64,000 nt of DNA from Clostridia bacterium (GCA_017481595.1 JAFUOY010000022.1:40713-104712), one strand, 5' to 3'. Counted from the stretch's first letter, positions 39,942 through 56,085 are shown. Numbers and translations: made by a program. Notes: generated from the sequence alone by a model not told the origin.

Positions 39942-40171
39942 TGCATTTGTAGACACAAATGCATATAGTGAAATATTTTGCTTTGCAAAATGTGAAATAA
40001 TGTTCTGTCGAACATTGTGAAATATCTCGCTCTGCTCGATGTGAAATGAAATAAATCCCCTCACGCCCGCAGGCATTTCACTCGCTGAAAGCGAATTTCA
40101 CACACGAAGTGCATTTCACAAATCCCGTAAGGGATTTATTTCGTTGCGTAGTGTCCTTAAGGGCACTACGC
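39942..40171. repeat. word-hairpin array A (GTGAAAT x4 / ATTTCAC x3-4 with interleaved unique mini-hairpins)
   Basis: Direct reading of the sequence; see findings for coordinates. Confidence 0.8.
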
Positions 40172-40201
40172 TAAAATCCGTCCTCTTTCTATTTGTAAGT
40201 T

Positions 40202-41791
40202 TTATTCCTCAGTGTAACTGCCCCAAGCCTTGTTCCACTCCGCTATTGTTTCAAGAGCTGCGGGAGACCTTTTTTCGTAGTACTCATCAAAGTTGTTTTT
40301 GTAGTTAGCGTATGTACCGAAAAGAGAGAAAAGGCTACCCCAGCCTACCGCTTCACCCGGATCATATGAAATATTCGGTATGATATAATCGGTTAACATT
40401 TCAATATCCTTATCGGAGGAAAAGCCCGTTTTCAAGATTTTGATATATTCCTTCATAACGTATTCTTCACCCGTCCAGAAAAGTACGTCCATAAAGTAAT
40501 CTGACATGTTTCTGTCCTGTGTTATTTTTGGAATACACATAGCGACGGACATCTGTGTTGAGCAAGGAACACGGTATCTGCCTTGCTCCTCATTAAGCAT
40601 AGGAAACGGAACTATTCCTTTATCCTCCAACTGATCAGAATAACTTAAGGTGTCACTTAAAAACAAGATCTTGTCTTTTTTAAATCCGTCTGCATCGTTG
40701 GGACCCCAACTTCCGTATCCACTATAATCCTTGTACCAATTTGCTTTGCTTGTATAGATTATAGCGTCAATAATACCGTCAACGTTTTCATCATTTGTTA
40801 TAAGCTCCCATTCACCTGTAGCCTTATTCACTCCCCCTCGGGTAACGTCAAAAAAGTTGAAAAACCGATCTGATGAATAATTGCGAAGTCCATGCACGTA
40901 TCTGAATCTATCTTCGCTATCGCCGTTGTCGGAATATACAGCCTCACAGTAGCCAACTAACTTGTCATAGGTCCATTTGCCTTCCTTTACTAATTTATAA
41001 AGGTCCTCAATGCCGTTTTCACTTACTTCACCCATAAGATTTTTATTAACGTAAAGCAAGTATGCCGTATGCTTTTCTAAATTGGAAAAGCTACCTGTTA
41101 CAAAGAAGGTGTGACCGTATGCTGTGTAGGCTTCTACAGAATTATCATTGTAATATGAATTTCTGAAATCTATAAATTCTCTGTCTGCAAGGTCGTATAC
41201 GTATCCGCCCGCAACGATTGCTTGCACGTTCATCATACGGGGAGCGGCAAGGTCGTAGTAGATGTTTTTCGCAAGGGTTGCTTCTTCAAGCGCTTTGGGC
41301 ATACCCGCCTTGGTAGCGTTTATCCAATTAACCTTAACACCGTACGTGTTTTCAATAAACTCGTTACGGTCGAGAACTGCCTGCTGGATCTGAACGCCGA
41401 ATTTGGCATCGTTTTCCTCAGTGATAAAAACCTCAGGCATTGCCCATGGCGCACCCGTAGCATACCACGTGGAGCAGGCAACGTTAAGCGTCTTACCGTT
41501 CCAAGTATCTCTTACGTCATTTTTGGATGACCAAATAACTTTGGGGCCTTTTGTAGAAGGAGCTTCAGTTGTAGGAACTTCAGTTGTAGGAGCTTCTGTT
41601 GTTGGAGCCTCGGTAGTAGGCGCTTCTGTTGTAGGGGTCTCGGTTGTTGGCGCTTCAGTTGTAGGAATCTCCGTAGTAGGAGTCTTAGTTGTTGGCGCTT
41701 CCGTAGTTGTGGACTCATCATTTCCACCGCAGGAGGCAAGTACGGACGTCAGCATAAGTAACACTAACAATATTGACATTAATTTTTTCAT
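40202..41791 (-). CDS. solute-binding-protein-like lipoprotein with PTTEA linker (orphan, no adjacent permease)
   Basis: The signal peptide and lipobox match the 15346 gene. The mature part resembles large family-1 ABC sugar-binding lipoproteins, but the family call is tentative. Confidence 0.5.
   Translation of the reverse strand: MKKLMSILLVLLMLTSVLASCGGNDESTTTEAPTTKTPTTEIPTTEAPTTETPTTEAPTTEAPTTEAPTTEVPTTEAPSTKGPKVIWSSKNDVRDTWNGKTLNVACSTWYATGAPWAMPEVFITEENDAKFGVQIQQAVLDRNEFIENTYGVKVNWINATKAGMPKALEEATLAKNIYYDLAAPRMMNVQAIVAGGYVYDLADREFIDFRNSYYNDNSVEAYTAYGHTFFVTGSFSNLEKHTAYLLYVNKNLMGEVSENGIEDLYKLVKEGKWTYDKLVGYCEAVYSDNGDSEDRFRYVHGLRNYSSDRFFNFFDVTRGGVNKATGEWELITNDENVDGIIDAIIYTSKANWYKDYSGYGSWGPNDADGFKKDKILFLSDTLSYSDQLEDKGIVPFPMLNEEQGRYRVPCSTQMSVAMCIPKITQDRNMSDYFMDVLFWTGEEYVMKEYIKILKTGFSSDKDIEMLTDYIIPNISYDPGEAVGWGSLFSLFGTYANYKNNFDEYYEKRSPAALETIAEWNKAWGSYTEE
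41561..41710 (-). repeat. tandem 15-nt repeat encoding (PTT[EK][ATIV])x10 linker
   Basis: Direct reading of the sequence. The plus-strand ORF 41403-41816 is a shadow. Confidence 0.9.
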
Positions 41792-41855
41792 AATTTGTCC
41801 TCCTTTTTCAAAATAAAACTATTATAATGTCTTTATAATACATCTATCTAATTAG

Positions 41856-41884
41856 ATTCTATCACATCAAAGCGAATATGTCAA
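41856..41884 (-). promoter_or_regulatory. sigma-A type promoter (right copy of the duplicated cassette)
   Basis: Minus strand reads TTGACA (41884-41879), 17-nt spacer, TAGAAT (41861-41856). It is identical to 15252-15280. Confidence 0.65.
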
Positions 41885-41967
41885 TAGATTTTTTCTAAAA
41901 TATAAAAACAGACTGTCGCTTAAGACAGTCTGTTTTGGTCTGTGCTAATTGCAACGACCTCTTTTAT

Positions 41968-54252: not shown

Positions 54253-55149
54253 TTGTCAAACCAGGAGCGCCAGACCCTGGAAAGCTATAAGACGGAGCAA
54301 AGAAACACCTACGTCCGTGTTATGCTTATGGTGAACATAGTATTTATATTACTTCTTATTACTATCGCAGTAATTGCCCTTAAGGTGAGTAACGTTTTAC
54401 CCGAGGGAGCTGATATATTCTATATCGTAGGCAAGGACCCGTCCCTTGAAATAACGGATCAGGACGGTAAAAAATGGAAAAACGAAGAAAACGTAGACAT
54501 TTTTAAAACCGACTACAAAAACGGAGAGGGACAGATTACCGTTGCCTCACAAGACGGTGACAAAATAATCGCCCCCGGTACTACAACGAAATATATGTTC
54601 GCGCTTTTTAACGACGGTAACGTGGCGTTAAAGTACGAAACAGATATTGATTTTTCACTTACCGTAAACGGAGATGAATCCCACTATTCAGATGATTTTC
54701 CCCTTCTTGTAAGATTAACCACGGACGAGGACGGCGGAAGATACTTAATGGGCTCTGAAACCGAATGGGTAAGCGTAAGCAAGGCGAAAATAGACAGCTA
54801 CGTAAGTCAGCTTGGCGCAAGCTCCTATGAGCATTTTACCCTTGAAATAAAGTGGGAATACGAGGGCGGTAACGACGAGCTTGATACCCTCCTTGGCAAT
54901 CTTTCCGCAGAGGGCTCTTTGGCAGGCGGTGACGGCGTTCTTATCACTATGGGTATCAATACCGTAGCAGAGGAGCATATCGACCCCGAAGCCGAGGGCG
55001 GCACTAAAATACAGGAAAACGGTCAACCCGTTGACGTTGAACACGGCGGCACTATCCGTTGGATCTGGCTCATACTTTTATTCTTGAACATAGCTATGAT
55101 AATCTTCTACATATCATGGATCCTTAACAAGCGAATGAACAAATGGTAA
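54253..55149 (+). CDS. TasA/camelysin-like paralog with N-terminal and C-terminal TM anchors
   Basis: It shares the IAPGT...F.LFN, KWEYEGG and DTLLGN blocks with the 53358 product. It uses a TTG start after GGAAAGGGGG. Confidence 0.5.
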   Translation: MSNQERQTLESYKTEQRNTYVRVMLMVNIVFILLLITIAVIALKVSNVLPEGADIFYIVGKDPSLEITDQDGKKWKNEENVDIFKTDYKNGEGQITVASQDGDKIIAPGTTTKYMFALFNDGNVALKYETDIDFSLTVNGDESHYSDDFPLLVRLTTDEDGGRYLMGSETEWVSVSKAKIDSYVSQLGASSYEHFTLEIKWEYEGGNDELDTLLGNLSAEGSLAGGDGVLITMGINTVAEEHIDPEAEGGTKIQENGQPVDVEHGGTIRWIWLILLFLNIAMIIFYISWILNKRMNKW

Positions 55150-55730
55150 ATAAGAAACAGTTAATAGTAAGAATAATTCTTTTCGTGCTTATAAGCGTAT
55201 TGCTTGGCGGCGGTATATATACCATTAACGCCAGCAACGTAGGTAATAATCAGATGCCAATGCCCTTTGGTCTTGGCTTGGGCGTAGTAATGTCGGGCAG
55301 TATGGAGCCCGTCCTTAGCATAAACGACGTTATACTCGTAAAGTCACAGGATGAATATCACCTTGGCGAAATAGTAGTATATCAAGCCAACGGAGAGCTG
55401 ATAGTACACGAAATAATCAAAATAGACGGAGAAGAGATCACCACTCAAGGCAGGGTGACAGGCTCTCCCGACGACCCCATATCCATAAAAGACGTAAAGG
55501 GAAAGGTTATCTTGACTCTTGGCGGCTTAGGAATTGTAGTTAAGATAATAAAAATGCCCGTTATAACCATTGCCCTCCTTCTTCTTTCCGTATGGCTGCT
55601 TTTAAAATCATACGCAAAGGAAAACGAAGAGGTCAATAAAAAAGCCAAAGCCCTTGACGATATCCGCAAGGAGCTTGAGGAGCTTAAGCAGGGCATTAGT
55701 AAAACCGACACTCCATCAAATGATGATTAA
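55143..55730 (+). CDS. sipW: signal peptidase I, archaeal/ER type (SipW-like), copy 2
   Basis: MSGSMEPVLSINDVILV (Ser box) and LIVHEI (His box), plus a C-terminal TM helix and charged tail. Confidence 0.8.
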   Translation: MVNKKQLIVRIILFVLISVLLGGGIYTINASNVGNNQMPMPFGLGLGVVMSGSMEPVLSINDVILVKSQDEYHLGEIVVYQANGELIVHEIIKIDGEEITTQGRVTGSPDDPISIKDVKGKVILTLGGLGIVVKIIKMPVITIALLLLSVWLLLKSYAKENEEVNKKAKALDDIRKELEELKQGISKTDTPSNDD

Positions 55731-55737
55731 CTAAAAA

Positions 55738-55768
55738 AGAAGTATGGCTCCTTCATACTTCTTTTTTT
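55738..55768. terminator. bidirectional intrinsic terminator
   Basis: AGAAGTATG-GCTCCTT-CATACTTCT flanked by A6 and T7. Confidence 0.8.
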
Positions 55769-55894
55769 GATAAACCACGCGCGCGTACGCGTATAATTAG
55801 AGACGTATTGGGCTCAGCCCAAACCCATATAACGAACAGAAAGAGCAAACACGCAAGACGAAAATCTTGTATGTCTGCTCTTTTTTCTGTTTGT

Positions 55895-56085
55895 ATAGTT
55901 TAGAGTTATGAGGCTCGCTTTCGCTCACCGTTATAAGCTTGCATAGCAAGCGTTATGATATGATTGCCCATCTAACCTATAACTTGGCGAATCCAATCAT
56001 AACGATACGAAGTATCTCATAACTCATAACTTGCCCGCAAGGGCAATCATAGTTTAGCGTGAATACTCCGTTAAGAGTATCACGC
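55895..56085. repeat. word-hairpin array B (GTTATGA/GTTATAA x3, TCATAAC x4-5, with interleaved unique mini-hairpins)
   Basis: Direct reading of the sequence; see findings for coordinates. Confidence 0.8.

Follow-up and report, generated by a model that had tools for sequence, protein, structure and literature searches.

Gut-1 (Rfam RF01706) was described in 2010 from 43 human-gut metagenome sequences, with neither a sequenced organism nor a function, and was rated as "certainly RNA" and non-cis-regulatory (Weinberg et al. 2010, Genome Biol 11:R31; PMC2864571). The protein family PF05635/TIGR02436 includes S23p, which in Xanthomonas is a toroidal homopentamer (PMC4990558). In Coxiella, an S23p open reading frame (ORF) is carried by the intervening sequence (IVS) of the 23S rRNA, which has been termed a selfish element (PMC4990558), and PF05635 genes have been reported inside cas loci (PMC3936711). 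Avd, a protein of diversity-generating retroelements (DGRs), is a homologue of the S23p family (PMC10053308). By cryo-electron microscopy, all five protomers of Avd contact an RNA stem-loop, with bases flipped out into the inter-protomer crevices and contacts made by the same residues of different protomers; most DGRs have Avd-binding stem-loops, capped by GNRA or UNCG tetraloops (10.1101/2023.10.23.563531). In this study, we analysed two arrays of 7-nucleotide (nt) words, A and B, in a 64,000-nt stretch of DNA from a Clostridia bacterium (GCA_017481595.1 JAFUOY010000022.1:40713-104712; "the window"), together with their relatives in other genomes. Array A contains a known motif, Gut-1, here identified as one half of a larger unit, and array B is a new word variant. 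We describe the family to which they belong, its anatomy, hairpin covariation and fixed orientation, its links to tRNA genes and to PF05635 genes, and the joint change of word and protein.

Array A occupies positions 39968-40145 and array B positions 55905-56051. A 7-mer cluster scan of all 64 kb found a forward block followed by a reverse-complement block only at these two places, and the remaining clusters were coding repeats. In array A, the forward word GTGAAAT starts at 39968, 39992, 40017 and 40041, and these four copies with their hairpin fillers of 17-18 nt make up the long-filler (L) half (39968-40047, plus strand). The reverse word, ATTTCAC as read on the plus strand, starts at 40075, 40095 and 40113. 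It belongs to the short-filler (S) half (40075-40145, minus strand), which also contains hairpins of 13 and 11 nt, a hairpin designated X (AAATCCC-GTAA-GGGATTT, 40120-40137) and a partial word, ATTTC-GTT, with its ATTTC at 40138-40142. The halves are separated by a centre of 27 nt (40048-40074). It opens with GAAAT-AAATCCC (40048-40059), the complement of GGGATTT-ATTTC at 40131-40142, and continues with CTCAC and a small hairpin, GCCCGCAGGC. Filler lengths are 17, 18, 17, 13 and 11 nt, and all fillers are palindromic save the third, which is imperfect; a first-pass annotation of this DNA had likewise described palindromic fillers of 11-18 nt. A terminal hairpin of the type GCGT..TTAA..ACGC, GCGTAGTGTCCTTAAGGGCACTACGC at 40146-40171 (arms and loop GCGTAGTGTCC-TTAA-GGGCACTACGC), lies between the S end and the adjoining stop codon of a 529-amino-acid (aa) gene on the minus strand (40202-41791). 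This hairpin recurs at the same position in relatives L025, L054 and L046 (L-numbers denote fetched loci) and therefore travels with the element. In most other relatives, its position is taken by a terminator hairpin with an A-run and a T-run. An outer hairpin beside the L end of A (TGCATTTGT-AGAC-ACAAATGCA, 39942-39963) is of uncertain membership because relatives do not conserve it. In the same region, a promoter-like TAGACA-16-(TG)AATATT (39947-39977, plus strand) has its -10 element made by the first GTGAAAT of A and is unconserved in relatives.

Array B copies this anatomy: a partial word stands next to an X hairpin at one end, both recur in the centre, and a GCGT..ACGC hairpin lies at the end. 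Its L half (55905-55958, plus strand) consists of GTTATGA at 55905, GTTATAA at 55930 and GTTATGA at 55952, with fillers of 18 and 15 nt. The second word differs from GTTATGA by a point change; in strain variant L002, the canonical GTTATGA stands at that place, and a perfect hairpin, ttggcGAAgccaa, corresponds to the ttggcgaatccaa of the window. The centre is 38 nt long (55959-55996). It opens with TATGA-TTGCCC (55959-55969), the complement of GGGCAA-TCATA at 56041-56051, and ends with a decayed hairpin, TTGGCGAATCCAA (55984-55996). In the S half (55997-56056, minus strand), the reverse word TCATAAC, as read on the plus strand, starts at 55997, 56017 and 56024 and is accompanied by a hairpin, gatacGAAgtatc, the X hairpin TTGCCC-GCAA-GGGCAA (56031-56046) and a partial word, TCATA-GTTTA, whose TCATA starts at 56047. 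The terminal hairpin GCGTGAATACTC-CGTTAA-GAGTATCACGC (56057-56085) separates the S end from the stop codon of a 675-aa gene on the minus strand (56107-58134), which it adjoins.

The layout proposed by the first-pass annotation was correct in outline. Its forward words, four in A and three in B, were confirmed, but its four to five reverse words do not hold for A, which has three full words and one partial. A centre of 19-27 nt was right for A and too short for B. The terminal GCGT..TTAA..ACGC hairpin beside the gene was found at both arrays, as was the stop codon of a minus-strand gene. The bidirectional terminator said to flank each array was not recovered: the terminator scanner made a plus-strand call only at A (39893-39924) and gave no call beside B. 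Folding z-scores of A and B, each taken on both strands, were between -6.5 and -7.2 relative to dinucleotide shuffles. The setting is an ordinary chromosome with a G+C content of about 42%, in which neighbours include NrdR, TruB, a DHH phosphoesterase and a Na+/H+ antiporter, and the genes that adjoin the two arrays have other domains or none.

The Gut-1 model matched the S half of A (40070-40146, minus strand) with 74.2 bits and an E value of 4e-15, the gathering cut-off being 50 bits. The L half (39966-40052, plus strand) scored 43 bits, which is under the cut-off, as a weak inverted Gut-1 copy. Because Gut-1 matches on both strands of A, the array consists of two convergent, unequal Gut-1-like halves. 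On R1, a covariance model of A-type S halves, the S half of A scored 122.5 bits and its L half 36 bits. Array B gave no Gut-1 match at E values up to 10, no Rfam family matched it, and it reached only 4.6 bits on R1 despite the same anatomy. The earlier proposal that A and B share architecture and not sequence, as members of one structured element family, is supported by these scores.

Relatives of A were collected by a pattern scan with one genome per species. About 30 bipartite GTGAAAT arrays were obtained, mostly from metagenome-assembled genomes (MAGs) of Clostridia and some from Bacteroidaceae and Akkermansia, the nearest relatives of A being in Ruminococcus and Clostridia MAGs. The forward block comes first and the reverse block second in all of them; the opposite order never occurs. 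From the side of the upstream gene, the unit begins with an end hairpin, which is usually an A-run/T-run terminator and in the lineage of A is GCGT..ACGC. A partial word (CAACGAAAT) and the X hairpin follow, then the S half with three copies of GTGAAAT and hairpins of 11-13 nt, then a centre composed of a GC-rich hairpin, GTGAGG, X' and ATTTC, and finally the L half with three to four copies of ATTTCAC and hairpins of 15-18 nt. The start of the array, partial word plus X, is complementary to the centre, X' plus partial word, and this long-range helix competes with the local X hairpin. If formed, the helix would close the S half into a loop in which single-stranded words alternate with hairpins. 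Each half holds three to four full words, and contiguous arrays hold from 4 to more than 10. In some relatives (L186, L208, L191 and Nostoc), the heptads are contiguous, lack hairpins and reach the start codon. Every filler stem differs in sequence, within arrays as well as between them.

Departures from the bipartite plan were also noticed. One-sided arrays (L013, L020, L022, L032, L058, L089 and L122) contain GTGAAAT four times and end in GTGAAGGWGG or GTTGAGGAGG plus a hairpin. In some of these, a second array with another word (TATCATCA, CATCAT) or with contiguous TATTCAC heptads follows, and L022 has two composite one-sided units in tandem. In L018, an Akkermansia sp. MAG (2250-3500 and 5600-7060), a composite of three GTGAAAT and four CGAGATT words recurs in tandem about every 440 bp, and repeated GATATAA/TTATATC arrays surround a PF05635 gene.

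A search of 534 kb of fetched loci with model R1 gave 117 array halves, with words that include GTGATAT, GTGAAGT, GCTAAAT, GTTATA, GATATAA and GAAGTGT. MAFFT aligned the variable hairpins of the S halves poorly, and the alignment fitted by the covariance model was used instead. Standard pairs filled 95.0% of its cells, compared with 47% in shuffles and 35-48% with slid partners. Changes on both sides were present at 18 of 18 hairpin pairs, and the covariation score was 0.931 versus 0.174, with none of 500 shuffles as high. A model-fitted alignment is biased towards structure, but an alignment-free count of fillers agrees with it: an uninterrupted Watson-Crick stem of at least 4 bp occurs in 59-77% of 163 distinct fillers and in 3-5% of shuffled ones. 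Pairing is kept while sequence diverges, which is what the first-pass annotation had argued. The long-range helix covaries as well. Its X takes the forms aaatccc, tttgccc, attcgcc, atccgtcc, aaatccaccc, tattcgcc (GTGATAT sub-family) and tgattgccc (array B), and the two sides match at no fewer than 11 of 14 positions in 28 of 47 arrays (13 of 14 in A and 12 of 14 in B).

The arrays have a fixed orientation towards their neighbours. A tRNA gene is located 30-85 nt upstream of about half of the roughly 30 bipartite arrays; its anticodon varies widely, and it is always directed at the S end. Protein-coding upstream neighbours are co-directional as well, and where an upstream ORF reads the opposite way, a co-directional tRNA mostly lies in between. 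Arrays A and B follow the 529-aa and 675-aa genes, respectively, both on the minus strand, and their S ends likewise face the 3' end of a co-directional unit. The conserved context is this one, often with a tRNA as the upstream unit, rather than the interval from bidirectional terminator to stop codon that had been proposed.

The genomes of L052 and L093 contain two copies each, near-identical from the terminator A-run to the last word and unrelated outside. Given such sharp shared borders, the unit is a dispersed repeat that includes the end hairpin. Of 76 tRNAs, 6 had a 9-22 nt duplicate of their 3' end within the next 1.5 kb downstream, where the control gave about 1, and three of the duplicates lie before or beside arrays (L119, L085 and L014). 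Direct duplications of this kind (11-22 nt, ending in CCA) bracket inserts of 175-570 nt in L119 (~4750-5900), L085 (808-1233), L041, L143 and L014; the L119 insert comprises a terminator, a heptad array and a PF05635 gene, and a GTGAAAT array comes after it. The pattern resembles att-site duplication; no integrase is present. For A and B, comparison of strain variants revealed neither a target-site duplication nor a clean empty site. A phage origin was rejected, as one paired match stood among the 80 loci listed of 119 found in viral contigs.

At several loci, a sigma-70 promoter adjoins the last L word and drives a gene of 115-119 aa; L063 and L087 are examples of such a gene after a GTGAAAT array. 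Its product belongs to PF05635 ("23S rRNA-intervening sequence protein", E values of 1e-24 to 1e-27) and to TIGR02436 ("four helix bundle protein", 3e-24 to 5e-34). The closest solved relatives, 2RLD (E value of 3e-43) and 2GSC, have five chains per entry each; 2RLD comes from Bacteroides thetaiotaomicron. All PF05635 genes detected in the genome loci, 10 of 10, adjoin a word array. It is this four-helix-bundle family that recurs beside the arrays, in place of the HUH or RAYT-like nuclease suggested by the first-pass annotation. Loci with the words GTGATAT, GTGATGT, ATGAAAT and GTGAAGT show the same complete arrangement, from tRNA and terminator through S half, centre and L half to promoter and gene. 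Words of the B type stand upstream of PF05635 genes in L159 (GTTATA with hairpins) and L204 (contiguous GTTATGA heptads), and other words beside such genes are GATATAA in Akkermansia and CTCTTTT or CTCATTT as contiguous heptads. Elsewhere (Nostoc, Treponema, Monoglobus, L039 and L018), inverted heptad arrays stand on both sides of the gene. Nostoc flagelliforme has AATTCGT four times, the PF05635 gene and then ACGAATT four times, and Treponema saccharophilum is a cultured carrier with the gene between inverted heptad arrays. In Monoglobus pectinilyticus (L334, NZ_OY725736.1 80176-81893), an unannotated PF05635-like ORF with flanking heptads is placed between hsdS and hsdR of a type I restriction-modification operon, a placement that echoes the reports of PF05635 genes inside cas operons. 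No long ORF stands beside the PF05635 gene in the five Clostridial loci listed, and neither a reverse transcriptase nor a template or variable repeat of the DGR kind was noted near the arrays, although no search was aimed at these. PADLOC returned no match for the PF05635 protein, and a defence system was rejected on this ground.

The link between gene and array was tested independently with 80 metagenome loci fetched by the protein alone. In the 340 nt upstream of the PF05635 gene, the top 7-mer occurred at least five times in 27 of 73 loci, compared with 4 of 295 control windows from the same loci; with a threshold of at least four occurrences, the numbers were 43 of 73 and 15 of 295. A co-oriented tRNA was present within 500 nt upstream of the gene in 19 of 61 loci, and none of the 61 had an opposite-strand tRNA within that distance or a downstream tRNA. 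Word and protein change jointly: the top 6-mer was shared by 68-100% of protein pairs with more than 60% identity but by 3-4% of pairs below 60%, and the observed difference was reached in none of 1000 permutations. The control windows, with the 64-kb cluster scan, also show that the layout is not matched by random AT-rich intergenic DNA, the outcome that would have spoken against the first-pass proposal; together with the filler shuffles, they led us to reject chance or AT-rich low complexity as an explanation.

Based on these sequence comparisons, we propose that A and B belong to a widespread family of bipartite arrays that would serve as ligand, probably in the form of RNA, of a cognate ring protein; the two would be copies without a gene ("solo"), each from a different word sub-family. 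This proposal is plausible, and we hold it with about as much doubt as confidence. The 7-nt word would be the specificity element, read by protomers of the cognate PF05635 ring with one word, or part of one, per protomer. The hairpins would be spacers that fold away and keep successive words adjacent in a single-stranded molecule; such a ligand is suggested because contiguous and hairpin-interrupted heptads are interchangeable across the family. The bound molecule would most probably be RNA, made when transcription of the upstream gene or tRNA continues across the S half and on into the L half. This direction is favoured because the upstream unit is co-directional in nearly all cases and because G-T exceeds A-C mismatches on the strand that runs from S to L (15 versus 6 in hairpins and 12 versus 3 in the closing helix). 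The complementary half may offer an alternative pairing partner for the words. As to the cellular role, autoregulation, assembly of a ribonucleoprotein (RNP) and propagation of a selfish IVS-like element are candidates. Simple autoregulation through the 5' untranslated region (UTR) does not fit in Clostridia; it could fit the contiguous-heptad types that reach the start codon. With partial words counted, there are about five word-like linkers per half, which fits a pentamer, not strictly, and is suggestive only.

Several observations weigh against this proposal. No PF05635 gene was detected by hmmsearch in the window or within 10 kb on either side. A and B are therefore taken as solo copies whose cognate protein is assumed, not seen, and which may act in trans or be relics. 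Word counts vary, both per half and among contiguous arrays. In Clostridia, the sigma-70 promoter is located between array and gene, so the array is not obviously part of the mRNA of the gene, and a terminator often lies between the array and the upstream tRNA. The joint change of word and protein could reflect plain co-inheritance of neighbouring DNA. The stems are about 95% Watson-Crick and about 2% G-U, which is unusual for an RNA family. Moreover, on the strand that reads ATTTCAC, the loops are GAA, GCA, GTA, GTAA or GCAA, that is, G-N(N)-A, in both halves, and thus on opposite strands (bipartite arrays, L132-L170; window 39975-40137). Such mirrored loops are unexplained by one transcript and suggest something diverging from the array centre. 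They recall d(cGNAg), which forms exceptionally stable DNA mini-hairpins.

In a different reading, the arrays are a selfish or mobile element at the level of DNA. They would be the joined ends, similar to a miniature inverted-repeat transposable element (MITE), of an IVS-like element that has its PF05635 gene between inverted heptad arrays. The words would be protein sites on DNA, and the fillers single-stranded mini-hairpins or cruciforms formed during insertion near terminators and tRNA 3' ends. The near-identical copies with sharp borders at unrelated sites (two each in L052 and L093), the tRNA 3'-end duplications, three of them by arrays, the five cases of a gene within inverted heptad arrays, the Coxiella precedent of an S23p-bearing IVS termed selfish (PMC4990558), the almost purely Watson-Crick stems and the mirrored loops are all in keeping with it. 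However, no transposase, integrase or HUH gene recurs beside the arrays (not every neighbour was Pfam-scanned), A and B have no target-site duplication or empty site, a large rearrangement, not a clean insertion, distinguishes their strain variants, viral contigs rarely contain the arrays (one paired match among the 80 loci listed) and the wobble counts favour one RNA strand. We regard this DNA-level reading as possible but rather doubtful. It is compatible with the protein link and differs from the ring-ligand proposal mainly in the molecule and the purpose.

A structured RNA that stands alone, without a four-helix-bundle protein, would correspond to the Rfam view of Gut-1 as a small RNA (sRNA), or to a 3'-UTR or trailer that blocks exonucleases or reinforces termination. 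It agrees with the original rating as non-cis-regulatory RNA (Weinberg et al. 2010), with the position of the arrays, always at the 3' end of a co-directional unit and often bracketed by terminators, and with the finding that some three quarters of the A-type arrays lack a PF05635 gene as neighbour. We consider it unlikely, as it leaves unexplained why at least seven copies of the word per array are identical while each stem drifts, why the words switch as a set between sub-families, and why all 10 PF05635 genes lie by arrays and arrays precede the independently fetched genes. Neither is there a consistently placed promoter for an independent sRNA. An sRNA with its own promoter was rejected, the promoter matches in the A region being weak and unconserved and B having none, and stacked intrinsic terminators were rejected as well: the word of B lacks a U tract, and only the X hairpin of A with ATTTCGTT is terminator-like. 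Finally, the unit of a short conserved word plus a hairpin resembles that of repetitive extragenic palindromic (REP) elements and bacterial interspersed mosaic elements (BIMEs), which would be mobilised by a REP-associated tyrosine transposase (RAYT) or an IS200/IS605-type HUH Y1 transposase, and the arrays, like these, are extragenic, follow genes and form inverted groups. Such an origin is very improbable. The recurrent neighbour is PF05635 and not a Y1 transposase (the neighbours were not all systematically Pfam-scanned), the stems are unconserved within an array, unlike REP stems, and a direct block precedes an inverted block with no alternation.

Strain variants of the B locus were compared as well. 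L001 is identical to the window, and L003-L009 show a large rearrangement after an S24-peptidase gene, with no clean insertion; the attempt to define insertion borders from them was rejected. The S24-peptidase-like gene itself (55143-55730) is identical in the strains, and divergence sets in right after "gtattgggctcagcc" (window 55731-55900; L002-L009). Beyond it, some strains have three extra genes (154, 254 and ~1100 aa); in the window strain and in L002, their place is taken by a terminator-like hairpin, array B and the convergent gene. A promoter-like TTGATA-19-TATAAT (~55768-55798) is left at the B locus, reading into a remnant. Elsewhere in the window, a 791-aa ORF (15325-17700) contains coding repeats of 15/30 nt (15428-15614) followed by about 18 repeats of 69 nt (23 aa; 16243-17489), which resemble the leucine-rich or BspA-type repeats of surface proteins. 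In clustered regularly interspaced short palindromic repeat (CRISPR) arrays, repeats are 23-50 nt long, spacers are unique and non-palindromic, and cas genes are present. The repeats of 69 nt at 16.2-17.5 kb were rejected as a CRISPR array because they are coding. Arrays A and B were rejected as well, since their repeat measures 7 nt, hairpins stand in place of spacers and the blocks are inverted; the sole CRISPR-model match in B had 13 bits and an E value of 9.5.

If the proposed link is correct, two orphans would explain each other: Gut-1, in Rfam since 2010 without organism, context or function, and PF05635/TIGR02436, a large and structurally solved family of which the DGR cofactor Avd is the only understood member. 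The literature search, which did not cover all journals, found no paper linking Gut-1 or word arrays to PF05635, the nearest note being that on the Coxiella heptamers. The link predicts, in testable form, that a toroidal pentamer reads heptamer words between fold-away hairpins, with word and protein matched pairwise. It would account for the heptamer repeats beside the Coxiella S23p ORF and for small PF05635 genes inside rRNA, after tRNAs and in restriction-modification and cas operons. More tentatively, PF05635 rings and arrays of their cognate 7-nt words might constitute an unrecognised system of two parts that is very widespread: a small RNP element, selfish or regulatory, that is reprogrammable by its word, colonises tRNA 3' flanks, rRNA loops and the spacers of operons and cas loci, and leaves gene-less arrays behind. 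In that case, Gut-1 RNA, the heptamer repeats of cyanobacteria, Treponema and Coxiella, and the S23p/Avd fold would be parts of one mechanism. Naturally orthogonal pairs of word and protein could serve as parts for RNA or DNA tethering. Should the arrays be decaying selfish DNA only, the Rfam "sRNA" would still be re-annotated as half of a larger repeat element.

Other systems offer analogies for how many copies of a short word may be read. TRAP is a ring that reads (G/U)AG triplets in single-stranded RNA, many copies of a very short word, and the omega repressor of pSM19035 reads DNA heptads in direct and inverted blocks. Both have folds unrelated to that of PF05635, and the analogy concerns the working mode, not membership. 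REP elements and BIMEs share with A and B the extragenic units of word and hairpin that follow genes in inverted groups; they differ in their HUH enzyme, which was not found here (not every neighbour was scanned), in their conserved stems and in their alternation, as opposed to a direct block followed by an inverted block.

The 23S rRNA IVS of Coxiella and Leptospira, an element of helix 25 or 45, involves the same protein family, PF05635. In Coxiella, the IVS has two to three tandem GACAGAT heptamers just upstream of the S23p ORF, in a number that varies among strains, and terminal inverted repeats that form a stem (PMC4990558). In contrast, A and B are located outside rRNA, of which the Rfam scan found none in the window, and between protein-coding genes; they have no ORF, and their heptamers are interrupted by covarying hairpins. 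Excision by RNase III is established for the 23S IVS only. The Avd/Spacer stem-loop RNA of DGRs is comparable in that a homologous pentameric barrel holds structured RNA through equivalent inter-protomer crevices, but Avd binds one stem-loop and no repeated word. The closest likeness is to Gut-1, which the S half of A matches from end to end as three hairpins parted by GUGAAAU. The Rfam model covers one half in one orientation only, and B and other word variants give no match to it, whereas the full unit is bipartite: it also has an inverted half, in which the fillers are longer, a long-range helix that closes the S half, and a hairpin at its end. The value added to the known motif is its link to S23p/Avd-like ring proteins and to tRNA 3' flanks: Gut-1 can now be placed in MAGs of Clostridia, Bacteroidaceae and Akkermansia, after tRNAs and before PF05635 genes.

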